A DNA stretch of 64,000 bases from Candidatus Rokuibacteriota bacterium (GCA_016184125.1 JACPDG010000051.1:7983-71982); one strand, 5' to 3'; positions 7,445 to 57,518 are shown, counted from the first letter of the stretch. Numbers and translations: made by a program. Notes: generated from the sequence alone by a model not told the origin.

Positions 7445-8523
7445 ACCGCATCGTCGGCACGGGGATCGCCGTGCCGCCGACCGTCGTGGACAACGGGCTC
7501 CTGTCGCGCTGCATGTCGACGACCGACGAGTGGATCGTCCAGCGCAGCGGTATCAGGCAGCGTCACGTGTCGCCGGACACCTGGCGGATGCTCCAGCGCC
7601 TGGCGGAGGCGCCGGACAAGCCGGCGTTCATGGACTCGGTGTTCGCCCAGGGGCTCGACGGCTGCATCGACTCGTCGATGACCGTGACGGACCTCGCGCT
7701 CGAAGCGAGCGCGATGGCGCTCAAGGCCGCGGGCATCCGCGCGCAGGAGCTCGACTGTATCGTCGAGTCCTCGACCCTGCCGGACCTGGCGTACCCGCAC
7801 ACGGGGTGCGTGCTGCAGGGACGGCTCGGGCTCACGAGCACGCCCGCGATCAGCCTCCAGCAGGGGTGCGCCGGCTTCGTCTACGGGCTGGCCATCGCCG
7901 ACCAGATGATGCGCGGCGGGATGTACCGCCAGGTCCTCGTGGTGGGTGCCGAGCTCCTGTCGAGCGCGTTCGATTACACCGACCGCGGCCGAGACATGGC
8001 GGTCCTGTTCGCCGACGGTGCGGGGGCGGCGGTCGTGCGGGCCGAGACCGGCAACCGCGGCGTGATCTCGAGTCACCTGCACTCCGACGGCACGATGATC
8101 GACGCGCTGTCCGGCGAGCTGTGTGGGTCCTCGACGTTCCCGCCGGTCTCGAAGAAGAAGATCGACGACGGCCGGGCGCGTCCGCGGATGAACGGCCGCC
8201 AGGTCTTCGTGCACGCCGTCCGGCGCTTCCGCGAGGTCATCCTCGAGTGCGTCGAGGCCAACGGCATCACGCTCGGCGACGTGGATCGCTTCGTCGTGCA
8301 CCAGGCGAATCTCAGGATCATCGAAGCGGTGGGCGACGCGCTCGGCATCCCGCCCGATCGCTTCTTCAACAACATCGAGCGCTTCGGCAACACCGCCGCC
8401 GCGTCGGTGCCCATCGCGTTGCACGAGGCGCTCGCGGCCGGCGCGATCCGCGACGGGGACCTCGTGATGCTCGCGTCGTTCGGCACCGGGCTGTCCTGGG
8501 GCGCGAACATGATCCGCTGGTAA
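7441..8523 (+). CDS. fabH: 3-oxoacyl-ACP synthase III
   Basis: Cys-His-Asn triad: GCAGF, HQANLRI, GNTAAAS; LFADGAGA; ATGA overlap with upstream gene. Confidence 0.9.
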   Translation: MNRIVGTGIAVPPTVVDNGLLSRCMSTTDEWIVQRSGIRQRHVSPDTWRMLQRLAEAPDKPAFMDSVFAQGLDGCIDSSMTVTDLALEASAMALKAAGIRAQELDCIVESSTLPDLAYPHTGCVLQGRLGLTSTPAISLQQGCAGFVYGLAIADQMMRGGMYRQVLVVGAELLSSAFDYTDRGRDMAVLFADGAGAAVVRAETGNRGVISSHLHSDGTMIDALSGELCGSSTFPPVSKKKIDDGRARPRMNGRQVFVHAVRRFREVILECVEANGITLGDVDRFVVHQANLRIIEAVGDALGIPPDRFFNNIERFGNTAAASVPIALHEALAAGAIRDGDLVMLASFGTGLSWGANMIRW

Positions 8524-8744
8524 TCGCCGGCCGGCCTCGACGGCCCCTTCGACCTCCCGCGAGTGCGCGGGTAAAGCTTCAGCTCGCCGCCTCGACCGAC
8601 CGTCGCTGGAGCGGACCTGCCGCTGGATAACCGCCCGGCGGATGAAAATAGTACAAAGCACCTATAGACCCCGACAGGACAATCGGCAAGGCTGAAGCAC
8701 TTGACGCTTCCTGACTCGGGACCAACGCGCGGGGCGCGGAACCC

Positions 8745-10592
8745 GTGTCGCGCCACGTCGCGACCGCGCCCGCCATGTTTCTCGGCTCGGACAGGAGCCC
8801 CATGGGTGAGGAAGACCGGCAGCGTCTGACGCTCGTCCAGCGGTTCGGCCTGCTCAGCCTGCCGTGGGTGATCGGCCTGACGATCGCGCTCTGTGGCATC
8901 GCCGCCGCGCTGCTGACCGACCAGATCGTCCGGCATGAGGCGATCGACCTGGGCGAGATGCTGCAAGTCCTCATCCCCAGGGTTCTCGATCCCGAGGCGT
9001 TCGACAAGCCACCCGGAACGGCCCCCGGGATCGCCCGCGCGTTCGAGGAGCTGGCGCCCTCGAGGTCGATCGTGCGCGTGATCGTGTACGACCGGCGTGG
9101 CCGCGTCCTCTGGTCGGACGACAAGACGCTGATCGGCGGTGAGTACCCTGACAATCCGAAGCTGCAGGCCGCGCTGCGCGGTCGGCTGGACGCGTCGATC
9201 ATTCACCCCGGCACCAGCGCCGAACCCCACCACGCGGCGCTCAGGGGGTCCGATCGGCTCCTCGAGATGTACGTGCCCGTGCGATTCGGCCGCAACGCTC
9301 CGATCGTCGGCGCCGTCGAGCTCTACCGCGACGCGCCAGGGGTCCTCGTCCTGCTCGATCGCAGCGTGGGTATCCTGTGGGTGCTCGGCGGCCTTGCGGG
9401 TGCGGCGCTCTACGTCATCCTGGTCGTCATCGTCCGCCGGGCCTCGGCCCGGCAGCTCGCCCTGGAGGGGCAGCTCCGGGCGCACGCGCGGGACCTCGAG
9501 GAGCGAGTCGCGGAGCGAACCGCCGCACTGCGCGAGACCGGCGCCCGCTTGGAGAACGTCCTCGAGAGCTCCGCGGACGCGATCGTGACCCTCGACCAGC
9601 GGGGTGTCATCGCCTTCGCCAACCGCGCCGCGGTGCGGATCTTCGGTTACAGCCAGGACGCGCTCGTCGGGACGCGCCCGGCCACGTACTGGCTACACGG
9701 GCGCCGCGACTTCCGCGCACTGCGCCGCGCTCTGGTCAGGAACGAGCGCGTGGAGAACCACGAGACCGAGCTGCGGGCGGCCGACGGGCGCACCGTCATC
9801 GTCGACGTGTCAGCGTCGCTGCTGCGCTGCCCGCGGCGCGGCGTCACCGGTGCGGTGGGCGTGCTGCGCGATGTCACGGAGCTGCGCGCGCTGCACGAGC
9901 AGATGCTCCGGACCGAGCGACTGGCGACGGCCGGCCTCCTGGCGGCCGGGGTGGCCCACGAGGTGGGGAACCCGCTGATGTGCATCTCCTCGGTGGCGCA
10001 GGTTCTCAAGAAGCAGAGCACCGTGCCGGCCGTCCAGCGCGGCGTGGACGAGATCCAGCGCCACGTCCAGCGCATCGCCCGCATCGTGCGCGATGTGAGC
10101 CGCGTCGCACGGTCGTCGCGCCTCCAGCTCCGGACGGTCGCGGTCGAGGACGTGCTCCGGACAGCGGTCGACCTCGCACGGCACGTGCCCGGAGCGCGGG
10201 CGATCTCGATCGACGTCGAGTGCGAGACGGGGATGCCGCGTCTGCGCGGCGATCCCGACCGCCTCGCCCAGGTCTTCCTCAATCTGATCCTGAACGCCGT
10301 GGACGCGGGTGCCAACCTGACCGTGCGCGCCACCGCGCGCGATGGCGATGTGCGGGTGGTCTTCACGGACAAGGGACCGGGGATCGGGCCGGAGACTCTG
10401 GCGCGGGTCTTCGACCCGTTCTTCTCGACCAAGGCCGATGGCCACGCGGGCCTCGGTCTCTTCGTGAGTCGAGAGACGATCCGCGAGCATGGCGGGCTCC
10501 TGCTGGTGGAGAGCCGTCCAGGGCACGGCTCGACGTTCACGGTGCAGCTGCCGGTCGATCGGATCACGGAAAAGGCAGAGTGGCGGGAATGA
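8745..10592 (+). CDS. Membrane PAS-domain sensor histidine kinase (NtrB-like)
   Basis: Two TM segments, PAS (DAIVTLD...NRAA), H-box AHEVGNPL, N-box QVFLNLILNA, G-boxes DKGPGI and GLGL. Confidence 0.92.
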   Translation: MSRHVATAPAMFLGSDRSPMGEEDRQRLTLVQRFGLLSLPWVIGLTIALCGIAAALLTDQIVRHEAIDLGEMLQVLIPRVLDPEAFDKPPGTAPGIARAFEELAPSRSIVRVIVYDRRGRVLWSDDKTLIGGEYPDNPKLQAALRGRLDASIIHPGTSAEPHHAALRGSDRLLEMYVPVRFGRNAPIVGAVELYRDAPGVLVLLDRSVGILWVLGGLAGAALYVILVVIVRRASARQLALEGQLRAHARDLEERVAERTAALRETGARLENVLESSADAIVTLDQRGVIAFANRAAVRIFGYSQDALVGTRPATYWLHGRRDFRALRRALVRNERVENHETELRAADGRTVIVDVSASLLRCPRRGVTGAVGVLRDVTELRALHEQMLRTERLATAGLLAAGVAHEVGNPLMCISSVAQVLKKQSTVPAVQRGVDEIQRHVQRIARIVRDVSRVARSSRLQLRTVAVEDVLRTAVDLARHVPGARAISIDVECETGMPRLRGDPDRLAQVFLNLILNAVDAGANLTVRATARDGDVRVVFTDKGPGIGPETLARVFDPFFSTKADGHAGLGLFVSRETIREHGGLLLVESRPGHGSTFTVQLPVDRITEKAEWRE

Positions 10593-11896
10593 AGCCGTCG
10601 ATCTTGGTGGTGGACGATGAGTCGACGCTCCAGGAGACCCTCCGGTGGACCTTCGAGCACAACGGCTGGCGCGTGGTCGTGTCGGGCACGGGCGAGGAGG
10701 CGATCAGGTGCCTCAAGACCGATCGCTTCGACATCGTCGTCACCGACATCCGCCTGCCCGGTATCGACGGTATCGAGGTGCTCCGCTGCGCTCGCTCGCT
10801 CGTGGCGCGGCCACCGGTCGTGCTGATCACCGCGTACGGGACCGTCGAGACGGCGGTGGCCGCGCTTCGCCACGGGGCCGCCGACTACATCCTGAAGCCG
10901 TTCGATCTCGATGACCTGAAGGCGCGCGTGGAGCGCCTGGTCGACGACACAACCGCGACGAGGCGGCGCTGGGCCGACCCGCTCGGCGAGATCGTGGGTC
11001 AGACCCCGGGGATCCAGGCCTTGCGACAGCAGGTGCAGAAGGCCGCGATGACGAGCAGCAACGTGCTGATCACGGGTGAGACCGGCGCCGGGAAGGACCT
11101 GGTCGCGCGGAGCATCCATGCTGTGAGTGTCAGGCACGCCCATCGGTTCGTCGCGGTGAACTGCGGCGCTGTCCCGGACACGCTGTTCGAGAGCCAGCTC
11201 TTCGGCCACGCGCGCGGGGCCTTCACCGGTGCCGTCCAGGCCAACCCCGGGCTCATGGTGGCCGCCGACAAGGGCACGCTCTTCCTCGACGAGGTCGGCG
11301 AGCTGCCGTTGCTGCTGCAGGTCAAGCTCCTGCGCGCGCTCGAGGCCAAGGAAGTGTGGCCGGTCGGGCAGACACGCGCCGTGCCGACCGACTGCCGCAT
11401 CATCGCGAGCACGAACCGTGACGTCGAGGCCGAGGTCGCGGCGGGCCGCCTGCGTGCGGACCTCTTCTACCGCCTGAAGGTCGTGCACATCACCGTTCCG
11501 CCGCTGCGCGAGCGGCGGGCCGACATCCCACTCCTGGCCAAGCACCTCCTGTACCAGATCAACGGGCGGCTCGGCACCTGCGTGGCCGGTGTCGAACCCG
11601 ACGCGATGCACGCCCTGATGAACCACGACTGGAAAGGCAACGTCCGCGAGCTGCAGCACGCGCTCGAAAGCGCCATCGTCAACGGCGCCGACGAGCGCAT
11701 CACGCTCGAGGCCCTTCCGCGCGACGTGAACCCGATGGCGGCCCAGATACCGCTCAAGGAAGCGACGCGCCAGTTCGAGCGAGCGCGGGTGCTCGAGGCG
11801 CTCGCACAGACGGGCTTCGACAAGCGGGAGGCGGCCCGCCTGCTCGGGCTCAGCATGGCCTCGCTCTACCGCAAGCTGGACGATCGTTCGGAGTAG
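10589..11896 (+). CDS. Sigma-54-dependent response regulator (REC-AAA+-Fis HTH)
   Basis: ILVVDDE, TDIRLPG, Walker A GETGAGKD, GAFTGA, WKGNVREL, SLYRKL. Confidence 0.95.
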   Translation: MKPSILVVDDESTLQETLRWTFEHNGWRVVVSGTGEEAIRCLKTDRFDIVVTDIRLPGIDGIEVLRCARSLVARPPVVLITAYGTVETAVAALRHGAADYILKPFDLDDLKARVERLVDDTTATRRRWADPLGEIVGQTPGIQALRQQVQKAAMTSSNVLITGETGAGKDLVARSIHAVSVRHAHRFVAVNCGAVPDTLFESQLFGHARGAFTGAVQANPGLMVAADKGTLFLDEVGELPLLLQVKLLRALEAKEVWPVGQTRAVPTDCRIIASTNRDVEAEVAAGRLRADLFYRLKVVHITVPPLRERRADIPLLAKHLLYQINGRLGTCVAGVEPDAMHALMNHDWKGNVRELQHALESAIVNGADERITLEALPRDVNPMAAQIPLKEATRQFERARVLEALAQTGFDKREAARLLGLSMASLYRKLDDRSE

Positions 11897-11901
11897 CCGC
11901 T

Positions 11902-11945
11902 TCTCGAAAACGACAGACGCCGGAGCCCGATTCTCAGCGCTGACA
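11902..11945. promoter_or_regulatory. Paired enhancer-like (UAS) palindromes, set 1
   Basis: TCTCG-AAAA-CGACA (11902) and TCTCA-GCGC-TGACA (11932), 30 bp apart, 70-110 bp upstream of a -24/-12 motif. Confidence 0.6.
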
Positions 11946-12012
11946 CGCCACTGCCGCCCGCCTTCCGCCGCCTGCATCATCTTCCGCCCACACCGAACCT
12001 ACGTCGGCGGCA

Positions 12013-12028
12013 TGGCACGCCGTCTGCT
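12013..12028 (+). promoter_or_regulatory. Sigma-54 -24/-12 promoter P1
   Basis: TGGCACGCCGTCTGCT, near-consensus with GG and GC 12 bp apart. Confidence 0.75.
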
Positions 12029-12046
12029 GGGCCGACCCACCCGTCG

Positions 12047-12238
12047 ATGAGCGCAGAGCCGCAGCTGGTGGTCATCGAGATCCTCGAAGGCAAGCGGACG
12101 CTGAAGGAAGCGATCCGTAGCTTCGAGCGTGAGTGCGTCCTCGCCGCGCTCGAGCGCGCGAACTTCGACAAGCGACGGGCCGCGAGCCTGCTCGGTATCA
12201 GCCTCGCCTCGCTCTACCGCAAGCTGGAACGCTCGTAG
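12047..12238 (+). CDS. Stand-alone Fis-type HTH mini-protein (63 aa), paralogous to the C-terminus of the upstream activator
   Basis: 29/42 identical residues to the regulator HTH region; same ASLYRKL recognition helix. Confidence 0.8.
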   Translation: MSAEPQLVVIEILEGKRTLKEAIRSFERECVLAALERANFDKRRAASLLGISLASLYRKLERS

Positions 12239-12338
12239 CGTCCACGATCTGCGCTCGGTGACGCCGGTACGCACCGGCTTCCACCCCCGACGCGGGCAGG
12301 GGGGTGGCAGCGCGCCTCTCAAAAGCTGGCGTCACGGT

Positions 12339-12384
12339 TCTCAAGGCTGAGAGCGACCGCCCGCGGCTCATCTCAACTCTGCGA
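12339..12384. promoter_or_regulatory. Paired enhancer-like (UAS) palindromes, set 2
   Basis: TCTCA-AGGC-TGAGA (12339, perfect) and TCTCA-ACTC-TGCGA (12371), 32 bp apart; extra TCTCA half-site at 12317. Confidence 0.6.
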
Positions 12385-12462
12385 ACGGAGCACCCGCCGC
12401 TATAGGTCAATGTACCTGTTTTTCTGGCGATTTAATGATGCGTATGCGTCATCGTGCGGCCG

Positions 12463-12478
12463 CGGCATTCCCGGTGCA
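12463..12478 (+). promoter_or_regulatory. Candidate sigma-54 promoter P2 for the oxidase operon
   Basis: CGGCATTCCCGGTGCA with correct GG/GC spacing; AT-rich tract 12401-12440 lies between it and UAS set 2. Confidence 0.5.
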
Positions 12479-12621
12479 CTACGCCGCACCGCGTATTCGT
12501 CGCTTCGCCGACGAGCTCGCATCTCTGCGCAGGTCCACGAGGAGTGCCTCACGCGAAGGAGGGACTGATGCGGAGCGGACCGGTCCACGCGCAACCGACA
12601 CGACGCAAGGAGAGACGCACG

Positions 12622-15600
12622 ATGACGCCGCACCGCACACGAGCCCGCATTCCCGCACTCACGACCCGCCGCCGTGCGATCGGCCTGCTCGGCCCGATCG
12701 TGCTCGTCGCCGTGTTGCTCGCGGCGGTCCTTCCCGGTCCCGCCCATGGGCATGGGGCCTGCGCCACCACGGTGGTGGCCGACGTGGTCGCCTTCGACAC
12801 GCCGATGATGTTCAACCGCCTGGGCGCGCAGAACCCGAACTGGATCACGTACGCGCTGAAGCGCGACGTGGTCGCCCTCACGGGCGGCGCCGCGGGGCCC
12901 GGTAACGCCCAGATGCGCAAGGACAAGCGGATTCGCCCGCTCGTCCTGCGCGTCAACGAGGGCGATTGCCTGAAGGTCAACTTCACCAACTGGCTCGCCG
13001 GCGCAGCGAACCCGTTCGTCAACGCCGACCGCGAGCCGCCGATGAACCTCGAGTCGCCGTTCCTGAAGATCGACGACCAGGTGCGTGGCCGCTACGCCGG
13101 CTTCCACGTGCGCGGTCTGCAGCTCGCCGGCACCATCGCGTCCGACGCCTCCAACGTCGGCAGGAACGCCAGCAGCCTGGTCCCGTCCGGCGGCGGCGCG
13201 ACGTACACCTACTTCGCTCCACCAGGGACGCGTGGCGCCTACCTTGCGGACAGCTACGGCGCGACGTTCGGCGGAGAAGCCACGGCCGGCAACACGGGCC
13301 AGGGCATGTTCGCCGTCGTCAACGTGGAGCCGAAGGGCGCCCGCTGGTACCGCAGCCAGGTGACCGATGAGGAGCTGCGGCTGGCCACGACGGGCACGAC
13401 GGCGGCCGGCCAGCCGATTCTCAGTTATGAGGCGCGCTATCCGGCGACGAACCCCGACGGGTCGCCGAGCATCTGGTTCGCCGAGGGCAAGGCAAACCTG
13501 CCGATCCTCAACATGAGGGACGGCAACGCCATCGTCCACTCGGACATCAACGCGATCATCGCTGGCCCGAATCCCGACGGTACCTTCCCGGCGAGCACCT
13601 ACCCGCTGGAGAGCGCCGGCAAGCGCAATCCGGCCGTGCCCAACCGGCTGGAGCCGTTCCGCGAGTTCACCACCGTCTTCCACGATGAGCCGTCCGTGGG
13701 GCAGGCGTTCCCGGGCTTCTACGACGCCAACCCGGTCACCAGGCGCCTCCTCCACGGCGTCCGCGACGGGTTCATGATCAACTACGGCTCGGGCGGCATC
13801 GGCTCGGAAATCATCGCCAACCGCCTGGGCGTGGGGCCGATGTGGGACTGCCTCTCCTGCGCCTACGAGGAGTTCTTCCTCGGCTCCTCGGAGGTTGGCG
13901 ACCCGGCGATGCTGGTCGACATTCCTGCGAACGTCGGCCTCGAAGCCTGCGACGTCGCGGGCGCGAACTGCCTCGACGTCGGGCCGAAGGCGACCAAGGC
14001 GCTCTTCCCGGACGACCCGTCGAACGTCCATCACAGCTACCAGAACGACCGGGTCGTGTTCCGGAACCTGCACGCGGGGAAGGAGCACCACATCTTCCAC
14101 CTCCACAACCACCAGTGGCTCTTCGACGCCAACGACGACAACTCGAACTATCTGGACGCCCAGGCGATCGGCCCAGGCTCCGGGTACACGTACGAGATCA
14201 ACTTCGGCGGCAGCGGCAACCGCAACAAGACTGCCGGCGACGCGATCTTCCACTGCCACTTCTATCCCCACTTCGCCCAGGGCATGTGGGAGCTGTGGCG
14301 GATCCACGACGTGTACGAGACCGGCACGCAGCTGGACGTGAGCGGTGGTGGCTTCCACACCGTGCCCTTCGCCCTGTTCGACGGCACGCCGGCCGTGTCG
14401 TCCAGCGTGCCTGGGGCCCGGATGAGGGCACTGCCCGACGGTGAGATCCTGGCCGGCACGCCGATCCCGGCTCTGGTCCCGCTCCCCGGCAAGGCGCTGC
14501 CGCTGATGCCGGGCGAGGTCGTGGTCGTCCAGAAGAACGCCAATCCCGGCGTGGACGAGGTCCCCGACGACCCGGTGGCATGCGCCGCGGATCCGAACGG
14601 GCCGACCTGCGGCGTCCAGGCGCTGCCGGATTCGAGCCAAGCCCACGTGGTCGACCGCGCGCAGAACCCCGGCTACCCGTTCTGGATCGCCGGTGTCGAT
14701 TGTGGCGGCGACCCCGTGAACTGCCCGCTCGGGGTCGTGGGCCAGCGGCCCCCGACGCCGGTCCTCGACATGCTGAGCGAGGGTCAGGCCGCCGGGCTCC
14801 GCGCCGGCAACGGCACGCTGTTCGGCGCGCTCAACAACCTGGGCGGCCCGGCCGACGGCGGCTGGGACGGCGGGCTGCCGCGCCACGCGCTCGACGGCTT
14901 CCTGGCCGCCGGTGGCCGGACGCCGGACGTGTTCCACCAGGAGCAGACCAAGCTCAGCTTCGACAAGGAGATCTTCAAGGCCAAGCCGGTCTGGTTCCCC
15001 GAGGGCGGCACCGATGTCGAGCAGGCTGCGATGGCGTTCCATGCCGTCCGTGCCTACCCGAGCACCGCGGTGCGGCTTGACGGCACTACCACCACGGCCG
15101 ACTACATCACCAACGGCGGACCGCCCCAGGCGGGCGCGCCCATGTCCGAGCCGTGCATCGACGACAGGGGCGTCACGCTCTTCACCGGTGTCACGGGGCA
15201 GTGGTTCGGCTCGACGCCGGGGAGCCTGGTGAGCCTCGGCACCTCGCCGTTCAGCGCGACCGCGCCGCGCGTCTACAAGGGCGCCAACATCCAGATCGAC
15301 GCGGTCTTCAACAAGGTCGGCACCCACTACCCCCAGCAGCGGATCATCTCGCTCTGGGAGGACGCGCTGCCGTTCATCGACAAGCAGAAACCGCCGGAAC
15401 CCTTCGTCATCCGCAACAACACGCTCGACTGCACGCGGTACCTGCACACGAACCTGGTGCCCAAGCGCTTCGAGGTGGACGACTACCAGGTGACGACGCC
15501 GACGGACGTGATCGGCCAGCACATCCACCTGCCCAAGTGGGACCTGCCGGCGGCGGACGGCTCGGGCAACGGCTGGAACTACGAGGACGGGACGCTGTCG

Positions 15601-18468
15601 CCCGGCGCGGTGCGCGAGCGGATCCACGCGATCAACGCGTTCAATCCCAGCGGAGCCGGCAACCCGGCCAACAGCGCCGGCGGCGGCGCCAACGAGCCGC
15701 TCGTGGCGCTGCCCCATCCGTTCTTCGGCGGCGGCCAGGGTGGCGAGTGGGTCGGCGCCCGCACGACCATGCAGCGCTGGTTCTTCGACCCCGTGCTGAA
15801 CGTCCACCACGTGGACCGTGGGCTCGGTATCATCTTCACCCACGACCACTTCGGGCCCTCCACCGTCCAGCAGATCGGCCTCTACGCGACGGTGCTGGCC
15901 GAGCCCGCCGGCTCGCAGTGGGTGCACAACGAGACGGGCGTGCCGATGTACACGCGCGCGGATGGCGGGCCGACCGGCTGGCAAGCGGCCATTCTTCCCG
16001 GCGCGGGCGGCCAGCAGTTCGAGGCGTTCCGCGAGTTCTGGTTCCAGCACAGCGACTTCCAGAGCGCCTACGCGGCCGGGGTCTACATCGGCGCCGGGCC
16101 GGACGGCCGGCCGAACGCCGTGCTCCCGGATGCCAACAGCTTCCGGGACGCGATCAACCCGTCGGTCAGAGAGTTCGCGAACCCGGTGTTCCCGGACGTG
16201 ATCCGGCACGCGGCGGACTGCAAGGACGGTACGCCGCGGCCCTGTCCAGAAGCGATCTCGGCAGACGACCCCGGGTTCTTCGTGACCAACTACCGCAACG
16301 AGCCCGTGGGCTGGCGCGTGTTCGATCCGAACAAGATCGGGCCCGACGGCAAGCCCGGCACCCAGGCTGACGGCCAGGCTGGTGACCTCGCGTTCGCGCT
16401 CCAGACGAGGACCGACCGCAAGGTCCCCGAGCTGAACACGCGGCTCGGCAACACCCCGTACCCGCCGCTCACCGCGGACATCGGCCCCGGCGACCCGTTC
16501 ACGCCGCTGATGCGGTCGTACGCCGGCGACGTGATCCGCATCAAGTCCCAGGCCGGCGGCGACGAGGCGGAGCACAACTTCGCGCTCAACGCGGTCAAGT
16601 GGCTCCAGGGCGGCTCGGGCCACGGTCGGGGACCGAACACCGGCTGGCGCAACAGCCAGAATCGCGGCATCTCCGAGCAGTTCACCTTCGCGGCCCCGGT
16701 CATTCCCTTCGTCGGGGCGGCGCCCGCCCAGCAGGACTACGCGTACTCGCACAGCACGGGTGGGGACGGCTGGTGGTCCGGCATGTGGGGCATCCTCCGG
16801 ACGTACAACACGAACAAGCAGGATCTCTTCAAGCTGCCCACGACGGTCCTTCCGACCAAGATCGCGAACGCGAAGGAGTTCAACGGCGTGTGCCCGACGG
16901 CCGCGCCCGTGCGGCGGTACGACGTCACCGCCGTCCTCGCCAACACCGCGCTGGGCAATGCGCTCGGCGTGACGATTCCCGCCAACGTCACCCCGACGGA
17001 CAACGTCGGCGGCCCGCTGGACCCGGCGGGCGGCACGCTCGTCTACAACCCGCGGCCGACGCCGCTGGCGCCGCCGCTCGGCGGCGTCGCGAAGAGCGGC
17101 CCGCTCCACGACCCGACGGCGATCCTGTACGTGCGGACCGCTGACCTCGGACCTGATGGCAAGCTCCTGCCTGGCAAGCCGGTGGAACCGCTCGTGCTGC
17201 GCGCCAACGCCGGCGAGTGCGTGGAGGTGACGCTCAAGAACGGTCTGCCGGGCGACCTGAACGGCAACGGCTTCTTCGACGACAACCCCGACCTCGCGGG
17301 CTTCTCCCAGTTCATCCCGGTTGTCCCGCGGGACAAGAACGACCCTCAGGGCGTGACGTGGTTCGGCAGCAATTTGGTCCGTCCCTCGAGTGTCGTGGGC
17401 CTCCACCCTCAGCTCGTCGCCTACGACGTCACCCGCGACGACGGCATGGTGGTCGGCAAGAACCCGCCGGGCAACGAGGTGGTCGCGCCCGGCCAGCAGA
17501 AGACCTCCCGCTGGTACGTCGGCGACTTGACGCCGGTGCGGGCCGGTGGCAAGGAGTTCAACCTCGTGGCCACGCCGATCGAGTTCGGCGGCTCCAACCT
17601 GATCCCTGCCGACATCCTCAAGCAGGGAGAGAAGGGGTTGCTGGGTGCGTTCAGCATCGGCACCGCTGGCGGCAGCATCGTCGAGACCGACACCACGTGG
17701 GACCATCAGCAGACCGATCCGAACGTGACCCGCCAGACCCGGGCGTCGGCCACGCTCGCGGGGGGCATCCGTGACTTCGCGGTGGTGTTCCAGGATGGCC
17801 TGAACCTCCGCTACGCGGACGGGACGGCCGTCGAGAACATGGGGTCCGGTGAGGAACCCCCGGGCTCCGCGTCCAAGGCTATCAACTACGGCACGGAGCC
17901 GATGTGGTTCCGCTTCGGGCTCCAGCCGACGGCGCCGTTCGGCAACGCCGGGACGCCGGGCAGCTTCGGCGCCGTGCCCAACCCCGAGCAGGCTTACAGC
18001 AATGCGCTCGTCGATGGCGATCCCGCCACCCCGGTCTTCACCGCGGCGCCCGGCGTGCCCGTAAGGATGCACGTCCTGAAGCCGACGGGCATCGCGGTCG
18101 ATGACTTCCACGCCCGAGGCAGCGTGTTCCACCTGCACGGCCACGTCTGGCAGCGCGCGCCGTACGTCTGCCCGGGCCAAGACGACGGCGTGTCCGGCCT
18201 CGACGGGAAGTGCAACGCCACGAACTTCGGCGACCCCGGCTTCGAGCCCGGCTCGCGCGCGATCGGCGTGAACCCGATCGGGATGTACCTGGGAGCGCAG
18301 GACAGCGTGCTGCCGGGCGCTCACTTCGACATCGTGCTCCCCGGCGCGGGCAACGGGCCGACCGGCGGAGCCGGTGGCGTCGGCGGAGTGACCGGTGACT
18401 ACCTCTTCCGCGACCAGGCGTCGTTCGGCAACACGCAGGGCCTCTGGGGAATCATGCGCGTGGAGTAG
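12622..18468 (+). CDS. Giant multicopper oxidase, MnxG-like putative Mn(II) oxidase (~1950 aa; alternative start 12568)
   Basis: Cu motifs HIFHLHNH, FHCHFYPHFAQGM, QHIHLPKWD, FTHDHF, FHLHGH; signal peptide with TRRR; AAGGAG RBS. Confidence 0.85.
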   Translation: MTPHRTRARIPALTTRRRAIGLLGPIVLVAVLLAAVLPGPAHGHGACATTVVADVVAFDTPMMFNRLGAQNPNWITYALKRDVVALTGGAAGPGNAQMRKDKRIRPLVLRVNEGDCLKVNFTNWLAGAANPFVNADREPPMNLESPFLKIDDQVRGRYAGFHVRGLQLAGTIASDASNVGRNASSLVPSGGGATYTYFAPPGTRGAYLADSYGATFGGEATAGNTGQGMFAVVNVEPKGARWYRSQVTDEELRLATTGTTAAGQPILSYEARYPATNPDGSPSIWFAEGKANLPILNMRDGNAIVHSDINAIIAGPNPDGTFPASTYPLESAGKRNPAVPNRLEPFREFTTVFHDEPSVGQAFPGFYDANPVTRRLLHGVRDGFMINYGSGGIGSEIIANRLGVGPMWDCLSCAYEEFFLGSSEVGDPAMLVDIPANVGLEACDVAGANCLDVGPKATKALFPDDPSNVHHSYQNDRVVFRNLHAGKEHHIFHLHNHQWLFDANDDNSNYLDAQAIGPGSGYTYEINFGGSGNRNKTAGDAIFHCHFYPHFAQGMWELWRIHDVYETGTQLDVSGGGFHTVPFALFDGTPAVSSSVPGARMRALPDGEILAGTPIPALVPLPGKALPLMPGEVVVVQKNANPGVDEVPDDPVACAADPNGPTCGVQALPDSSQAHVVDRAQNPGYPFWIAGVDCGGDPVNCPLGVVGQRPPTPVLDMLSEGQAAGLRAGNGTLFGALNNLGGPADGGWDGGLPRHALDGFLAAGGRTPDVFHQEQTKLSFDKEIFKAKPVWFPEGGTDVEQAAMAFHAVRAYPSTAVRLDGTTTTADYITNGGPPQAGAPMSEPCIDDRGVTLFTGVTGQWFGSTPGSLVSLGTSPFSATAPRVYKGANIQIDAVFNKVGTHYPQQRIISLWEDALPFIDKQKPPEPFVIRNNTLDCTRYLHTNLVPKRFEVDDYQVTTPTDVIGQHIHLPKWDLPAADGSGNGWNYEDGTLSPGAVRERIHAINAFNPSGAGNPANSAGGGANEPLVALPHPFFGGGQGGEWVGARTTMQRWFFDPVLNVHHVDRGLGIIFTHDHFGPSTVQQIGLYATVLAEPAGSQWVHNETGVPMYTRADGGPTGWQAAILPGAGGQQFEAFREFWFQHSDFQSAYAAGVYIGAGPDGRPNAVLPDANSFRDAINPSVREFANPVFPDVIRHAADCKDGTPRPCPEAISADDPGFFVTNYRNEPVGWRVFDPNKIGPDGKPGTQADGQAGDLAFALQTRTDRKVPELNTRLGNTPYPPLTADIGPGDPFTPLMRSYAGDVIRIKSQAGGDEAEHNFALNAVKWLQGGSGHGRGPNTGWRNSQNRGISEQFTFAAPVIPFVGAAPAQQDYAYSHSTGGDGWWSGMWGILRTYNTNKQDLFKLPTTVLPTKIANAKEFNGVCPTAAPVRRYDVTAVLANTALGNALGVTIPANVTPTDNVGGPLDPAGGTLVYNPRPTPLAPPLGGVAKSGPLHDPTAILYVRTADLGPDGKLLPGKPVEPLVLRANAGECVEVTLKNGLPGDLNGNGFFDDNPDLAGFSQFIPVVPRDKNDPQGVTWFGSNLVRPSSVVGLHPQLVAYDVTRDDGMVVGKNPPGNEVVAPGQQKTSRWYVGDLTPVRAGGKEFNLVATPIEFGGSNLIPADILKQGEKGLLGAFSIGTAGGSIVETDTTWDHQQTDPNVTRQTRASATLAGGIRDFAVVFQDGLNLRYADGTAVENMGSGEEPPGSASKAINYGTEPMWFRFGLQPTAPFGNAGTPGSFGAVPNPEQAYSNALVDGDPATPVFTAAPGVPVRMHVLKPTGIAVDDFHARGSVFHLHGHVWQRAPYVCPGQDDGVSGLDGKCNATNFGDPGFEPGSRAIGVNPIGMYLGAQDSVLPGAHFDIVLPGAGNGPTGGAGGVGGVTGDYLFRDQASFGNTQGLWGIMRVE

Positions 18469-18500
18469 CCGCCCGACCTCGATGAACAACTGATGAACCA

Positions 18501-18536
18501 TCGCGGGTGCCGCCTCGAACGGGGCGGCGCCCGCGA
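18501..18536 (+). terminator. Strong intergenic stem-loop 3' of the oxidase (mRNA stabiliser or attenuator)
   Basis: TCGCGGGTGCCGCCTC-GAAC-GGGGCGGCGCCCGCGA; no U tract. Confidence 0.4.
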
Positions 18537-18589
18537 CGCGCCTCGCGGGGACCCTGCGGGGCAGCGACGATGAACAAGGAGAACCGACG

Positions 18590-20545
18590 GTGCGCCACCA
18601 CGCAGTCACCCGTGCGGCTCGCTGGGCAGTCCTGACCTTTCTCCTCGCCTTTCCGGCCTTCGCTCGGGCGCCCGAGGGGCGCGCGGCCGCGCCCGAGGGA
18701 GCCACGTCCCCGAATCGGCTGGCGCGGGAAGGCGTGACCGTCGAGTTCTCCGCGAAGCCGGCCGGCGGCGATGGAGACCTCCGGGAAGGCGATTACGCCG
18801 ACGTCTCCTTCCGCATCACCGACACCTCGACGGGCCGCCCGGTGCGGTCGCTCGCTCCGGGCGCGTGGATGGACATCGGGCAGCCGGTCGCGGCACGCGA
18901 CAAGGCGCCGCTCGACTGCCGGCAGAAGATGGGCCTCTACCTCTCTGGTCGGGTCGGTATCAGGCCCATGATCGACCTCAACAGCTACTACGTCCTCGCG
19001 CTCAACCGGGACTCGAGCATCTCGGTGGTGGATCCGCACGTCGGGATGGCGGGGAAGACGTACCTCTACGCCCACATCGCCCTGCCGAAGCCCGGCGCCG
19101 ACTGGGCGAAGACAACGGACGACAAGCGCCTGTTCGTCACGACTCCCCGGGGCGGACAGGTCGTGGTGGTCGACGCCGAGAGCTTCAAGGTCGCCGGCAA
19201 GGTGGACGTGGGCGGCCTGCCCGTACGGATCGTGATGCAGCGCGACGGCCGCTATCTCTGGGTGGGAGACGACAGCGCCGAGGCGGCGCGGAGCGGGGTG
19301 GTCGTCATCGATGGGGCGGCGCTGAGCGTCGCCGGCCGCATCCCCACGGGTCGCGGCCACCACGAGATCACACTCTCGCCGGACGACCGGTGGGCCTTCG
19401 TCAGCAATCGCGAAGAGGGCACGGTCTCGGTGATCGACGTCCAGCGTCTGGCGAAGGTCAAGGACGTGAAGACCGGCCTTCAGCCCATCTCGCTCGCGTA
19501 CTCGCGGCTGAGCCAGGCCCTGTACGTCGCCGACGGCGAGACGGGCGAGATCGCAGTGATCGACGGCCAGCGCCAGGAGGTGGTGGCCCGCATCGCGGCG
19601 AAGCCGGGCCTCGGGCCCATGCGCTTCACCGAGGACGGGCGCTGGGGGTTCGTCGTGAACACCCGGCACGACACGGTTCACGTCCTGGACATCTCGAACA
19701 ACCGCCTGGCGCACACGGTCCCCGTCGGGAAGCGTCCCTTCCAGCTCGCCGTCACCGGGGCGTTCGCCTACGTGCGCTCGCTCGATTCCGAAAAGGTGAG
19801 CATGATCCCGCTCTCGGAGCTCGGCCGTGACCAGATGCCGCGCGTCACGGACTTCGGCGCCGGCACGGAGACGCCGGGCGCGGCCGGGCCGGGCATCGCC
19901 GTGGCCGCGCCGATGGTCCCCGCGCTCGGCGAGGCGGCGGTGATGGTGGGGAACCCGGCGGACGGGAACATCTACTTCTACATGGAGGGGATGGTGGCAC
20001 CGATGGCCACCTTCCGGAGCTACGGCCACCGGCCCGCCGCGCTCGAGGTCGTCAACCGGAGCCTGAAGGAAACGGAGCCTGGCGTGTACCGGACCACGGT
20101 GCGGCTTCCCGCCGCGGGCACGTACGATGTCGGCTTCGTTCTGAACTCGCCTCAGCTGGTCCACTGCTTCGCAGCGGACGTCAAGGTGAACCCCGCGTTG
20201 GCCCGCACGGGGCCGTCGCTCGAGATCGCCTACCTCGTCAAGGACCGGCGCGTTCCGGTCGGTCAGCCGGTCACCGTCGGCTTCAAGCTGATCGACCCGG
20301 ACACGCAGCAACCGCGGACGGGGCTCGGCGACGTCGGCGTCTACTACGTGAGCTCGATGCGCCACCGGGCGCAGGCGCCGGTGCGCGAGCGGGGCGACGG
20401 CGTCTACGAGGCGACGATCTCGGTGCCTGAAGCGGGGGCGTATTACGTGTACGTGGCGGTCCCCTCGGCGAAGATCCAGCTCGGCGACCTCACGCACCTG
20501 AGCTTGATCGCCGAGCGGACGCCGGGCGCGACCCGACGCCGGTGA
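18590..20545 (+). CDS. Exported YVTN/YncE beta-propeller protein with C-terminal YtkA/FixH-like domain
   Basis: Signal peptide; repeated blades AFVSNREEGTVSVID, LYVADGETGEIAVID, GFVVNTRHDTVHVLD. Confidence 0.8.
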   Translation: MRHHAVTRAARWAVLTFLLAFPAFARAPEGRAAAPEGATSPNRLAREGVTVEFSAKPAGGDGDLREGDYADVSFRITDTSTGRPVRSLAPGAWMDIGQPVAARDKAPLDCRQKMGLYLSGRVGIRPMIDLNSYYVLALNRDSSISVVDPHVGMAGKTYLYAHIALPKPGADWAKTTDDKRLFVTTPRGGQVVVVDAESFKVAGKVDVGGLPVRIVMQRDGRYLWVGDDSAEAARSGVVVIDGAALSVAGRIPTGRGHHEITLSPDDRWAFVSNREEGTVSVIDVQRLAKVKDVKTGLQPISLAYSRLSQALYVADGETGEIAVIDGQRQEVVARIAAKPGLGPMRFTEDGRWGFVVNTRHDTVHVLDISNNRLAHTVPVGKRPFQLAVTGAFAYVRSLDSEKVSMIPLSELGRDQMPRVTDFGAGTETPGAAGPGIAVAAPMVPALGEAAVMVGNPADGNIYFYMEGMVAPMATFRSYGHRPAALEVVNRSLKETEPGVYRTTVRLPAAGTYDVGFVLNSPQLVHCFAADVKVNPALARTGPSLEIAYLVKDRRVPVGQPVTVGFKLIDPDTQQPRTGLGDVGVYYVSSMRHRAQAPVRERGDGVYEATISVPEAGAYYVYVAVPSAKIQLGDLTHLSLIAERTPGATRRR

Positions 20546-20563
20546 AGTGAGAAACGGCCTCGC

Positions 20564-22153
20564 ATGGCCCTCACGTCCTGGCGACGTACCCGCTGCGCCG
20601 TGCTCGTCGGCGCTGCCGTGCTTCTCGTCCCCGCCGTGATCGCGGCCGCCGGCCTTTCGGAGGCCGAGCGGCGGGGCAAGCGCATCTACATCGAGGGGCG
20701 GGGCCGCGGCCCGATCTCGGCGTACCTCGTCGGTCCGCGGCTGTCGGCGCCGGGCTCGGCGTTCCCATGCGCGAACTGTCATCTCGGAGAAGGTCCCGGG
20801 GTCAAGGAGGGCGGTGTCCAGGCCGCGGACATCAGGCATGCGACGCTCACGAAGGCGTTCGAGGGCGTCCGCCCGTCGGGGCGCGCGCATCCGCCGTACG
20901 CCGATGGGGACCTCGAGCGTGCCGTGGCGTTCGGCGCCGACCCCGGCGGCAACGCGCTCCACGAGGCCCATCCCCGCTATGCGATGAGCCCCGACGACCT
21001 GGCGGACCTCGTCGCCTACCTGAAGATCGTGGGGCGCGAGCCCGTGCCGGGTGTGACGGAGCGCGAGGTCCGCGTCGGCGTGCTCCTTCCGGACCGCGGG
21101 CCGCTCGCCGAGGCGGGGAACGCGGTGACGCGCTTGCTCCGGGGCTACTTCGACGAGGTGAACGCGCGGGGCGGGCTCTTCAGGCGAGCGCTCACGCTCG
21201 TGCCCGTCCTGTTCGATCCGGCCCGCGAGGACTCGGTGACTGCCGCCGTGAGAGAGGTGGTGGAGGAGGAGAACCTCTTCTGCCTGCTCGCCAATGTCGG
21301 CGTGCCGCCGGACCACGAGAGCTTGAAGGCGCTGTCGGCGGCACAGGTTCCCGTCATCGCGCCCTTGCAGGTCGCGCTGGACGGCGGCTACGGCGCGGAC
21401 CGCTACACGTTCCACGTCTGGGCGAGCATTCGCGATCAGGCGCGGGTGATGGTGGATTTCCTCACGCAGGCCGCCAGCAGGGCCCCGGCGCGGCTTGCGG
21501 TGCTCCACGTGTCGGACGCGTCCGGCGAGGCGGCCGCAGCCGGAGCGCGGGAGCAGCTCGCCAAGCACGGGCGTTCGGTCGTGGCCGAGGTGGCCTTTGC
21601 GCCGGGGAGGCTTTCTGCGCCCGAGATCGTGAGCCGGCTCCGGGACGCCTCCGCCGAGGCGGTCCTCTTCTTCGGGAGCGGTACCGACGTCCTCGCGTTT
21701 CTCGATGAGACGGAGCGCCAGCAGTGGCGCCCGCTCGTCCTCGCTCCCGCACCGATGGTCGGACGCTCGCTCCTCTCCCTGCCTGCCGGCGTGGCCAGGT
21801 CCGTGTACCTCGCGTCTCCGATCGCGAGTCCCGATCCCGCGGCGCGGGAGACGGCGGAGTTCCTGCGCCTCGCTGCCCGGTCGGCGGGTTCCGGAGACCA
21901 CCGGTCGTTCCAGATGCTCGCCTTCGCTGGAGCGAAGCTCCTGGAGGAAGGCCTGAGGCGATCGGGTCGAGACGTCAGCCGCCAGCGGGTCGTCGACGCG
22001 CTCGGGAGTCTCTGGAGATTTCCGACCGGCGTCACGCCGCCACTGACCTACAGCGGGAACCGTCGTGTGGGTGCGCTGGGATCCCAGATCCTCGCGATCG
22101 ACGCCGAACAGGGCCGGCTGACCGTGGCCGCCCCGTGGCGTGAGCCGCGATGA
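20564..22153 (+). CDS. Cytochrome c fused to a Leu/Ile/Val-type periplasmic binding-protein domain
   Basis: CANCH heme motif; PGVTEREVRVG start of Peripla_BP_6-like domain. Confidence 0.8.
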   Translation: MALTSWRRTRCAVLVGAAVLLVPAVIAAAGLSEAERRGKRIYIEGRGRGPISAYLVGPRLSAPGSAFPCANCHLGEGPGVKEGGVQAADIRHATLTKAFEGVRPSGRAHPPYADGDLERAVAFGADPGGNALHEAHPRYAMSPDDLADLVAYLKIVGREPVPGVTEREVRVGVLLPDRGPLAEAGNAVTRLLRGYFDEVNARGGLFRRALTLVPVLFDPAREDSVTAAVREVVEEENLFCLLANVGVPPDHESLKALSAAQVPVIAPLQVALDGGYGADRYTFHVWASIRDQARVMVDFLTQAASRAPARLAVLHVSDASGEAAAAGAREQLAKHGRSVVAEVAFAPGRLSAPEIVSRLRDASAEAVLFFGSGTDVLAFLDETERQQWRPLVLAPAPMVGRSLLSLPAGVARSVYLASPIASPDPAARETAEFLRLAARSAGSGDHRSFQMLAFAGAKLLEEGLRRSGRDVSRQRVVDALGSLWRFPTGVTPPLTYSGNRRVGALGSQILAIDAEQGRLTVAAPWREPR

Positions 22154-22172
22154 CCGGTACGGGGGAGATGAC

Positions 22173-22409
22173 ATGCCGGAACCCGGAACGCGCAGAGCGT
22201 TCGAGACCTCGGACATCAGCCTGGCCAGCTTCCTGCGTTGCCGGGGCTTTCCGTTCGAGGACCTCAAGCGCAGCGGCAACCGGACGCTCTTCGTGTTCCG
22301 GCACTCCGACGAGCTGCACCGCGCCGTTCTCGCCTACGCCAACGACGAGAGTGTCCCGGTGCGTTCGTTCTCGAACAACCTGAGAGACCTGAAGGCGCTG
22401 ACGCGGTGA
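22173..22409 (+). CDS. Small DUF5659-like protein (78 aa)
   Basis: FETSDISLASFLRCRGF...FVF...SFSNNLRDLK pattern; GGGGGAG RBS. Confidence 0.65.
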   Translation: MPEPGTRRAFETSDISLASFLRCRGFPFEDLKRSGNRTLFVFRHSDELHRAVLAYANDESVPVRSFSNNLRDLKALTR

Positions 22410-22455
22410 GCGGGCCCGGAACGTTGCGCCCGCCCGTCGACAGGGGAAGAGAAGG

Positions 22456-23121
22456 ATGACGAGAGCGATCGTGTTCGCCGCCGCCCTGGCGGCCCAGCTC
22501 ATCGTGGCGGTCGTCGCGTCCGCGCAGTCAGGATCGGGCCACCATCACCCGGCCGAGGCTTCCGCGGGTGCCGAAGCGAAGTCGGTGACGGTCAAGCTGC
22601 TCGACCTGGAGCTGCTCGACCAGGATGGAAAGCGGGTTCGCTTCAAGAGCGACGTCGTGCGAGACCGGCTGGTGGTGGTCAACGTGATCTACACCACCTG
22701 CCCGGTGGTCTGCCCGATCCTGTCCAGCGTGTTCGCGAACCTGCAGGAGCCGCTCGGCGAACGATTGGGGAAGGAGGTCGTCCTCGTCTCGATCAGCGTC
22801 GATCCCCTCAACGACATCCCGCCCCGGTTGAAGGAGTACGCCAAGCGGTTCAACGCCAGACCCGGGTGGGTCTTCCTCACCGGCAGCAAGGGGAACGTCG
22901 ATGAGATGCTCCGAGGCCTCAACATGTACGCCGCCGACTTCTCGGAGCACACGACCAGCATGCTCGTGGGCGACGGCCGGGAAGGCCGGTGGCGGCGCCT
23001 CTACGACGTCCCGCCCCCGGACCGTGTGCTGGCAGAGCTCGGGGAGCTGACGGTGGCGCGGGGCGGGGAAGCCCGCCCTGCCTCGCACGATGCGGTCGAC
23101 CACGGCGGGCACCGGCGATGA
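22456..23121 (+). CDS. SCO1/SenC copper chaperone 1
   Basis: YTTCPVVCP CxxxC, VSISVDP, distal His (EHT); HHH after signal peptide. Confidence 0.9.
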   Translation: MTRAIVFAAALAAQLIVAVVASAQSGSGHHHPAEASAGAEAKSVTVKLLDLELLDQDGKRVRFKSDVVRDRLVVVNVIYTTCPVVCPILSSVFANLQEPLGERLGKEVVLVSISVDPLNDIPPRLKEYAKRFNARPGWVFLTGSKGNVDEMLRGLNMYAADFSEHTTSMLVGDGREGRWRRLYDVPPPDRVLAELGELTVARGGEARPASHDAVDHGGHRR

Positions 23122-23708
23122 CGGCCTCCGGTCTGGCGCTCGCCCTGCTTCTCGGCGCCATTGTCGCCGCCCCGTCCGGCTCGGCACCGCCGCAGCCGCG
23201 GCCGGGCGGCCGGCTCGATCCCGGGGGGGCCCGCCAGTACTTCACCGACGTGACGCTGGTGGACCACGAGGGCCGGTCGCACCGGCTCTACAGCGACCTG
23301 CTCCGCGGCAAGGTGGTGGTCGTCAACTCGTTCTACACGAGCTGCACGGAGTCGTGCCCCGTCATCATGGGAAAGATGTCGCGCATCCAGGCCGCGGTCG
23401 GCGAGCGGCTCGGCCGCGACGTGCACCTCGTGTCGCTCACCGTCGACCCGGCGACCGACACGCCGGCCCGGCTGAAGGAGTACGCGGCGCGCCTCGGCGT
23501 GCGCCCGGGCTGGTACCTCGTGAGCGGGGAGCCGCGGAACGTCTCCGAGGCGCTGCGCAAGCTCGGCCACGCCACCGGGAGCAAGGAGGCGCACACGAAC
23601 CTCCTCATCGTCGGCAACGAGCGAACCGGGCTGTGGAAGAAGGCGACGGCGCTGGCCCACCCCGACGACCTGGTCCGTCTCGTCGAGGACGTGCTCGACG
23701 ATCGATGA
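23118..23708 (+). CDS. SCO1/SenC copper chaperone 2
   Basis: YTSCTESCP, SLTVDPATD, AHTN; ATGA overlap. Confidence 0.9.
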   Translation: MTASGLALALLLGAIVAAPSGSAPPQPRPGGRLDPGGARQYFTDVTLVDHEGRSHRLYSDLLRGKVVVVNSFYTSCTESCPVIMGKMSRIQAAVGERLGRDVHLVSLTVDPATDTPARLKEYAARLGVRPGWYLVSGEPRNVSEALRKLGHATGSKEAHTNLLIVGNERTGLWKKATALAHPDDLVRLVEDVLDDR

Positions 23709-23732
23709 AGTCGGAGGGCGCCCGGCCTCGCC

Positions 23733-26850: not shown

Positions 26851-26853
26851 CGT

Positions 26854-29084: not shown

Positions 29085-29090
29085 CACGTA

Positions 29091-29119
29091 AGAGTAAGCC
29101 GGGGCCGGTGATGTCGCAA
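29091..29119 (-). promoter_or_regulatory. Internal sigma-70 promoter for gspL-M-C-D
   Basis: TTGCGA-N17-TACTCT, 6 nt before GTG 29084. Confidence 0.55.
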
Positions 29120-29137
29120 AGGGTTCCCCGCGCCGTC

Positions 29138-29183
29138 AGTTCGAGCGACAATCGACCGCCGCGGGTCGATGGTCGCTCGAGCT
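29138..29183. repeat. Palindromic REP-like element, family 2, copy 2
   Basis: AGTTCGAGCGACAATCGACCGCCGCGGGTCGATGGTCGCTCGAGCT; homologous to 1319-1366. Confidence 0.78.
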
Positions 29184-29184
29184 C

Positions 29185-33526: not shown

Positions 33527-33561
33527 CGGCGCGCGTCACCGTCCCGGGCCGGACGGCGGCC

Positions 33562-57427: not shown

Positions 57428-57518
57428 CCGGGACCCGGCGCGGAGGGGCGGGGTGCTGAGAAGGCGCGTTCCGTCAACCAGGGCCTTTATCCCGTCTACG
57501 CTCACCCTGGAGGTGACG

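Follow-up and report, generated by a model that had tools for sequence, protein, structure and literature searches.

A putative PpMnxG-type manganese-oxidase operon with adjoining two-component/sigma-54 regulators on a variable island of a Rokubacteria-like genome

Manganese oxides govern what becomes of carbon, trace metals and pollutants, and the Rokubacteria are abundant and uncultured in soil, aquifer and ferromanganese-sediment communities. The question raised by the locus at 8745-23708 in a 64-kb stretch of DNA from Candidatus Rokuibacteriota bacterium (the window, on whose whole length all positions are counted) is whether such a bacterium carries a complete set of genes for the oxidation of Mn(II), as an earlier note on this DNA had proposed. 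We put the probability at about 0.7 that the locus is a self-contained operon, controlled by a two-component system and sigma-54, for an extracytoplasmic manganese oxidase of the PpMnxG type, carried on an accessory island of ~15 kb in a Rokubacteria-like (Methylomirabilota) genome; Mn(II) oxidation by the locus is what its sequence would predict.

The window has a GC content of 71%, with spurious long open reading frames (ORFs) in all frames; coding frames were chosen by GC at the third codon position (GC3), one frame per gene, and by this measure all real genes of the locus lie on the + strand. The gene list given in the earlier note matched ours gene for gene, with coordinates that turned out to be the exact gene boundaries as judged by GC3, but the gene run that it described had overlooked two small genes, the HTH_8 and DUF5659 ORFs (12047-12238 and 22140-22409). 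The locus and its neighbour read as follows.

8745-10592, + strand: sensor histidine kinase, 615 amino acids (aa); Pfam PAS, HisKA and HATPase_c
10589-11896, + strand: NtrC-type sigma-54 enhancer-binding response regulator, 435 aa; Pfam REC, Sigma54_activat and HTH_8
12013-12028, + strand: candidate sigma-54 -24/-12 promoter P1, TGGCACGCCGTCTGCT; one mismatch to TGGCAC-N5-TTGCW
12047-12238, + strand: stand-alone Fis-family HTH_8 protein, 63 aa; Pfam HTH_8, 2.1e-12
12317-12478, + strand: possible second sigma-54 promoter region P2; TCTCAA repeats, an AT-rich patch and the weak box CGGCATTCCCGGTGCA
12622-18468, + strand: PpMnxG-type giant multicopper oxidase, 1948 aa; NCBIfam NF041487
18590-20545, + strand: exported beta-propeller (YVTN/lactonase type) with C-terminal YtkA/FixH-like Ig domains, 651 aa; Pfam/NCBIfam
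20564-22153, + strand: exported monohaem cytochrome c fused to a type-I periplasmic binding protein, 529 aa; Pfam Peripla_BP_6
22140-22409, + strand: small DUF5659 protein, 89 aa; Pfam DUF5659, 3.2e-13
22456-23121, + strand: SCO1/SenC copper chaperone a (SCOa); Pfam, 2e-18
23118-23708, + strand: SCO1/SenC copper chaperone b (SCOb); Pfam, 1.3e-18
23733-35352, - strand: type II secretion cluster, the convergent neighbour; Pfam

On the evidence of its sequence, its copper-ligand motifs and the partner genes, the giant oxidase is a member of the PpMnxG system. NF041487 ('manganese-oxidizing multicopper oxidase MnxG') is its sole NCBIfam match and is covered from end to end (residues 47-1948 on positions 1-1894 of the 1894-residue model, 2250.7 bits, E=0), and the protein is 50-52% identical over its full length (residues ~11-1947) to MnxG of dozens of Pseudomonas, among them P. 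putida and the Mn oxidizer M. resinovorans MO-1. The top match in the PDB is Bacillus MnxG (9bxa, 1.2e-67, 231 bits), which aligns collinearly throughout, the window protein having large insertions. The MnxG type proposed in the earlier note is thus borne out. Pfam gave only a sub-threshold match to Cu-oxidase_2, and neither Pfam nor NCBIfam yielded a whole-protein match to CueO, CopA or laccase family models. The copper motifs are intact (HxxHxH at 490-495, HCHxxxHxxxxM at 544-555, HIH at 967-969 and HDH at 1074-1076); all four are invariant across 12 diverse homologues (58-80% identity) and align to the motifs of Bacillus MnxG. A search of 5.8 billion proteins returned more than 3,366 homologues, the nearest of them (75-78% identity) from groundwater and soil metagenomes, and in a scan of one genome per species the Myxococcota matches were 55-58% identical. 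The ORF opens at 12454 and ends at 18468; ATG 12622, with the Shine-Dalgarno sequence AAGGAGA and GC3 rising past that point, is the likely start, and ATG 12568, with AAGGAGG, is the alternative. Either of them yields a signal peptide with an RRR motif, which the start chosen by the gene caller (12712) would cut off. Ordinary signal peptides are found in the close oxidase relatives, and a signal sequence was read at the N terminus of every structural protein of the locus.

The genes that accompany the oxidase are not a chance juxtaposition. The window proteins were compared by tblastn with 165 related loci, comprising 85 genome and close-relative loci (L001-L085) and 80 metagenome loci, and the set of mnxG, propeller, SCO and cytochrome c-binding protein fusion is repeated in most of them, so that the synteny whose absence would have counted against the earlier note is present. 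Among the 85 loci, the propeller was found in 75, SCO in 71 and the cytochrome c fusion in 67, nearly always directly 3' of mnxG; the same three follow mnxG in many of the 80 metagenome loci as well, and loci with partner genes span Pseudomonas, Burkholderiales, Myxococcota and Acidobacteriota. In P. putida (L030), mnxG is followed by the propeller (with YtkA), two successive SCO genes, the cytochrome c fusion and a SurA-like peptidyl-prolyl isomerase (PPIase), which agrees with the gene set of the GB-1 mnxG operon drawn in PMC8218464 Fig. 2c. The parallel with the P. putida neighbourhood that the earlier note had drawn was therefore upheld, in that the five structural genes have identical domain architectures in the two loci, although the order differs and the window has no SurA-like gene.

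Several of these partners deserve description. The propeller protein comprises Cytochrom_D1/YNCE-type repeats followed by C-terminal YtkA/FixH-like domains (Pfam/NCBIfam), and its homologues, at 41-54% identity, stand directly 3' of mnxG in those 75 of 85 loci and in most metagenome loci, making it a constant partner of mnxG. The cytochrome c fusion matches Peripla_BP_6 at 2e-35 and Cytochrom_C weakly, with a single CANCH at residue 69; its P. putida homologue has the same architecture, with CxxCH at residue 63. SCOa carries CPVVC...H and has His-rich N and C termini, and SCOb, whose start overlaps the SCOa stop, carries CTESC...H. The DUF5659 gene encodes 89 aa from GTG 22140 (ATG 22173 is also possible), with a GC3 of 0.86, and homologues at 44-61% identity occur inside other mnx clusters, namely in the nearest relative (L080/L081) and in 12 or more metagenome loci; it is a recurrent and previously unnoticed member of mnx clusters. 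It was located at 22140-22409 in the window, at 16453-16653 in L080, and in L092, L104, L116 and L132-L146, which represent several unrelated lineages; it follows the cytochrome c fusion gene in the window and the nearest relative, in a soil clade it comes after mnxG and before the propeller gene, and gene callers often pass it over. A scan of the locus gave no convincing internal terminators, terminator-like sites being at chance level. Since the genes from mnxG to SCOb are on the same strand, with gaps of at most 121 nt or overlaps and no convincing terminator, we surmise that they are read as a single transcript.

Upstream of the oxidase lie a histidine kinase and a sigma-54 activator whose start overlaps the kinase stop by 4 nt. 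The kinase has two transmembrane segments around a periplasmic stretch of ~140 aa, followed by cytoplasmic PAS (2.3e-17), HisKA (His405) and HATPase_c domains; it has an AtoS/ZraS-like NCBIfam match below the cut-off, and its periplasmic domain gave no significant family (sCache_3_2, E=0.089). The activator matches Sigma54_activat (2.2e-64), Response_reg (3.3e-28) and HTH_8 (8.1e-10) in Pfam, and its sequence includes GAFTGA and the Walker A motif GETGAGKD. Within the 725-nt gap between the activator and mnxG, 117 nt past the activator stop and 19 nt before the HTH_8 ORF, lies P1 (TGGCACGCCGTCTGCT, 12013-12028), the only site with no more than one mismatch on either strand of the whole window. 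Further down, P2 combines TCTCAA at 12317, 12339 and 12371 (three of the seven forward copies in the window), an AT-rich patch at 12397-12446 (42% GC) and a weak -24/-12 box (CGGCATTCCCGGTGCA, 12463-12478) situated 105-159 nt from the mnxG start, the distance in other loci being 50-200 nt; these features are only suggestive of a second promoter. In Pseudomonas, TGGCAY-N5-TTGCT with 0-1 mismatches occurs 50-200 nt 5' of mnxG in essentially every locus fetched, and sigma-54 control looks like a conserved feature of the PpMnxG family. No Rfam family reached its gathering score anywhere in the window, a relaxed scan of 11850-12700, in the long mnxG leader, for Mn-sensing or other riboswitches gave only a spurious internal ribosome entry site match, and a promoter scan found no sigma-70 promoter-like sites.

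The earlier note had likened this arrangement to the sigma-54 signalling by MnxS/MnxR in P. putida. The sigma-54 part of that claim is supported by the type of activator, the candidate site P1, the boxes of Pseudomonas and of a soil clade, and the published PmnxG of GB-1, which has IHF and sigma-54 sites and is reported to depend on both (PMC11930936). The likeness to the regulators themselves did not carry over fully: MnxR is a sigma-54 activator, but MnxS1, MnxS2 and MnxR are PputGB1_2519-2521 and mnxG is PputGB1_2447, so they are not adjacent, and MnxS has neither PAS nor HAMP (PMC13631088). Because the GB-1 regulators are distant and MnxS lacks PAS, we regard the adjacent PAS-containing kinase and the activator of the window as analogues by position and type, and not as demonstrated orthologues.

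The locus is a presence/absence island of ~15 kb between the gene for KASIII (7441-8523, directly 5') and a native type II secretion system (T2SS) cluster. On a contig of JGI sample 3300056388, KASIII is 93% identical and eight upstream genes are shared, and these are followed by prfC (RF3), GspD, GspC, GspM and a GspL-like gene with no mnx genes; a second contig of the same sample reproduces the downstream synteny of the window. Since a close relative with the same flanks is without mnx genes, the trait is accessory and not lineage-wide. The composition of the island is nearly host-like (69.9% GC vs. 71.2% elsewhere; GC3 of 0.87-0.92 vs. 0.93-0.96), and its edges showed no tRNA genes, no integrase and no bounding direct or inverted repeats beyond chance. 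At the place where the relative has prfC, the window is without it (junctions 8523-8745 and 23708-23733). The only transposase, of the IS91 family (55658-57190), is 32 kb from the locus; after this Y2 transposase gene come two short beta-helix/NosD-like ORFs (57453-59116), apparently fragments of one disrupted gene.

As for the host, 19 of 20 named best matches of KASIII belong to Rokubacteria, Rokuibacteriota or Methylomirabilota, at 70-79% identity, and 6 of 8 named matches of PEPCK, encoded 15 kb 3' of the locus, belong to Rokubacteria or Methylomirabilota, at ~79%, the other two being from Tectomicrobia and Binatia. The best matches of both flanks agree with the Rokubacteria-like host that the earlier note had presumed. 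Its remark that Mn(II) oxidation is not established in this lineage stands as far as experiment goes, in that we found no demonstration of Mn oxidation by Rokubacteria in the published literature; at the level of genes it needs amendment, as mnxG/moxA genes have already been listed in Methylomirabilota metagenome-assembled genomes (MAGs) from ferromanganese settings (PMC10386581, PMC10367259).

A number of observations weigh against a Mn-oxidase operon of this kind: 1) the oxidase, at 2250.7 bits, scores below the NF041487 equivalog cut-off of 3100; 2) we know of no experiment that ties any PpMnxG homologue outside Pseudomonas to Mn oxidation, and the evidence in P. putida is genetic; 3) the link of the kinase and activator to mnxG rests on adjacency, the kinase architecture is unlike that of MnxS, and the two proteins are only 32% and 42% identical, respectively, to their counterparts adjoining the gene of the nearest MnxG relative; 4) 609 nt, with a small gene among them, separate P1 from the mnxG start, the better-placed P2 box has 3 mismatches, a quality that chance alone would give 0.45 times per kb per strand, and there is no rpoN gene in the window; 5) the host assignment, though supported, is drawn from best-match names of two proteins at 70-79% identity and not from a marker-gene phylogeny, the window having no ribosomal or other standard marker genes. 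With regard to the first point, the scores run from 3893 bits in P. putida and 3844 in M. resinovorans MO-1 to 2438 in Ramlibacter, 2345 in Anaeromyxobacter, 2251 in the window and 2152 in Rubrivivax A210, so that every non-Pseudomonas orthologue scored (2152-2438) falls under 3100 bits despite shared synteny; this argues that the cut-off delimits Pseudomonas and not the syntenic orthologue group.

The alternative that survives best is that this PpMnxG homologue acts on a substrate other than Mn(II), such as Fe(II), Cu(I), a phenolic or humic compound or a siderophore, with the cluster serving metal detoxification or organic-matter oxidation and 'manganese oxidase' being a misnomer for this enzyme. 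Multicopper oxidases are promiscuous, the identity to the genetically validated enzyme is only 50-52% with a score under the equivalog cut-off, and two copper chaperones with His-rich SCO termini would also suit copper handling. Moreover, several 'Mn oxidase' multicopper oxidases are hard to distinguish from non-Mn ones (bioRxiv 10.1101/2022.11.10.515945). However, the window oxidase has no whole-protein match to the CueO, CopA and laccase models, and it shares full-length collinearity and a complete, specific accessory set with the Pseudomonas mnxG operon and with the Mn oxidizers M. resinovorans MO-1 and Rubrivivax A210; we therefore consider a different substrate unlikely, and Mn(II) the probable one. 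That the host is instead another high-GC lineage (Binatia, Tectomicrobia, Myxococcota), or the window an assembly chimera with a foreign mnx segment, is very unlikely in our view, for although the contigs that carry the nearest MnxG relatives have 57-69% GC vs. 71% here and these relatives are labelled, where named, as Delta- or Betaproteobacteria or Actinobacteria MAGs and never as Rokubacteria, and PEPCK matches its Tectomicrobia and Binatia entries at equal identity, both flanks have Rokubacteria/Methylomirabilota best matches, GC and GC3 are nearly uniform over the junctions, two contigs from a single sample show the flanking synteny again, and a laterally acquired island accounts for the foreign-looking relatives without a chimera. 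These foreign labels from other phyla fit a lateral spread of the cluster.

For the Mn-oxidase operon that we favor, we postulate the following scheme. The membrane kinase would sense a periplasmic or redox cue via its periplasmic and PAS domains and phosphorylate the NtrC-type activator, which, with ATP, would open a sigma-54 promoter in the 725-nt region before mnxG, yielding one transcript for mnxG, the propeller, the cytochrome c fusion, DUF5659 and both SCO genes. The two SCO proteins would load the oxidase with copper; its type-1 copper would then take electrons from Mn(II) and subsequently Mn(III), while the trinuclear cluster would reduce O2 to water, leaving a Mn(III/IV) oxide. The propeller/YtkA protein and the cytochrome c fusion would be obligate partners in this process, and passage across the outer membrane may proceed via the neighboring T2SS.

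That secretion cluster comprises GspD, C, M, L-like PilM/N, the pseudopilins J/H/G, F and E (Pfam). De Vrind and co-workers reportedly found that export of the Mn-oxidizing factor of P. putida GB-1 depends on a Gsp-type secretion pathway, and T2SS genes adjoin mnx clusters in several unrelated settings, namely L080/L081 and L084, with secretins within 10 kb in about eight loci; it is reasonable to surmise that the oxidase may be exported through the neighboring T2SS. The T2SS was also considered as part of the mnx island, and this was ruled out, since the cluster occupies that position also in the close relative, which has no mnx genes. Just beyond the T2SS cluster, at 36016-37038, lies a gene for a 340-aa extracytoplasmic function (ECF) sigma factor with a long C-terminal extension; an ECF sigma gene is also found among the T2SS genes that follow the mnx cluster in L080/L081.

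The small HTH_8 gene behind P1 is by its sequence a paralogue, a partial duplicate of the C-terminal DNA-binding domain of the activator. Over 130 nt it repeats, in direct orientation and at 76% identity, the 3' end of the activator gene (11751-11880), the protein is 60% identical to the activator DNA-binding domain over 43 residues, and GC by codon position (0.66/0.42/0.88) is coding-like. The dN/dS of the duplicated HTH_8 is ~0.55 over 44 codons, a short span, and tblastn found no homologue of the ORF in any of the 165 related loci. The protein could be a DNA-binding decoy that gives negative feedback, or else a decaying duplicate. Fis has been proposed to have originated as just such a stand-alone HTH_8 protein, split off from the DNA-binding domain of a sigma-54 activator; the window copy bears that likeness to the Fis/NtrC C-terminal domain and differs in lying directly 3' of its parent gene, behind a sigma-54 promoter-like site, with 60% identity to the parent domain. 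A fuller account, in which a Rokubacteria-like bacterium, of a phylum not known to include a cultured Mn oxidizer, precipitates Mn oxide by means of a laterally acquired mnx island and native T2SS export, while a sigma-54-driven HTH_8 copy competes for activator sites as negative feedback in a local re-run of the origin of Fis, strikes us as improbable when taken as a whole.

Set beside known systems, the locus is closest to the GB-1 mnxG operon (PputGB1_2447), with which it shares a multicopper oxidase of ~1950 aa at 50% identity, the propeller/YtkA protein, two SCO proteins and the cytochrome c fusion; the sigma-54-type promoter upstream in GB-1 has candidate counterparts in the window. The two differ in several respects: 1) the cytochrome c fusion gene precedes the SCO pair in the window, which is without the SurA/PPIase gene and has the DUF5659 and stand-alone HTH_8 genes in addition; 2) the two-component regulators adjoin mnxG in the window and are ~70 genes away in GB-1; 3) the host phylum is different, and the window locus is an island that a close relative lacks. 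Its regulators resemble MnxS1, MnxS2 and MnxR in pairing sensor kinase and NtrC-like sigma-54-dependent response regulator as the presumed switch of the oxidase gene, and they differ, by the published description of MnxS, in having one kinase with PAS in place of two tandem kinases without PAS/HAMP (PMC13631088). The RR54 genes near mnxG in Pseudomonas are 34-37% identical to the window activator. Such identity is the usual background among NtrC-family members. Bacillus sp. PL-12 Mnx (MnxG with MnxE/MnxF, 9bxa) has a homologous, collinear multicopper oxidase of the six-domain type that shares the copper motifs HxFHxHxHQW and HCHxYPxxxxGMW with the window oxidase, but the window protein has 1948 aa vs. 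1227 aa with large insertions and a match of 231 bits, and its constant partner is a propeller protein of 650 aa; no small mnxE/F-like ORFs were called beside the oxidase, MnxE/F homology itself not having been searched. By sequence, the locus is not of the Bacillus MnxEFG type.

What has been found is a new host for a known and widespread system, not a new kind of system, and it will not surprise a specialist; the new points are the island polymorphism, the HTH_8 copy behind a sigma-54 site and the recurrent DUF5659 partner. The complete and apparently intact PpMnxG cluster with Rokubacteria-like flanks is a concrete, clonable candidate for testing Mn oxidation by this lineage, and the variability of the island means that the trait should not be assumed from taxonomy. 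P. putida mutants defective in cytochrome c maturation no longer oxidize Mn, for which the operon-encoded c-type cytochrome domain would offer a simple possible reason. The conserved core of the PpMnxG system appears to consist of sigma-54 control together with the propeller, SCO and cytochrome c fusion proteins, often with DUF5659. In a 2022 survey, 98% of all Mn-oxidase homologues, five families together, fell in three phyla (bioRxiv 10.1101/2022.11.10.515945); our searches give the PpMnxG system a far broader spread than that survey implied, with more than 3,300 homologues that include Myxococcota, Acidobacteriota and many unclassified metagenome lineages.

Some of the related loci showed features of their own. 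In L083 (NCBI GCA_040960215.1), whose MnxG is a 73%-identical relative, a large protein with animal-haem-peroxidase and HemolysinCabind domains is encoded at 16104-19789, 6 kb 3' of mnxG with DsbD and thioredoxin genes between; this peroxidase is of the MopA type, the other kind of bacterial Mn oxidase. In L082, labelled as a Deltaproteobacteria MAG, a 798-aa Big_9/cadherin-like repeat protein (8836-11232) is encoded between mnxG and the propeller gene, and the cluster is flanked by NosL and NrfD/4Fe-4S genes. A soil metagenome clade (L132-L164), on contigs of 53-58% GC, has shorter MnxG homologues, with matches of ~4.8 kb at 41-44% identity; here a histidine kinase and a sigma-54 activator typically lie directly 5' of mnxG, and an xGGCAC-N5-TTGCW box is found 90-190 nt before it.

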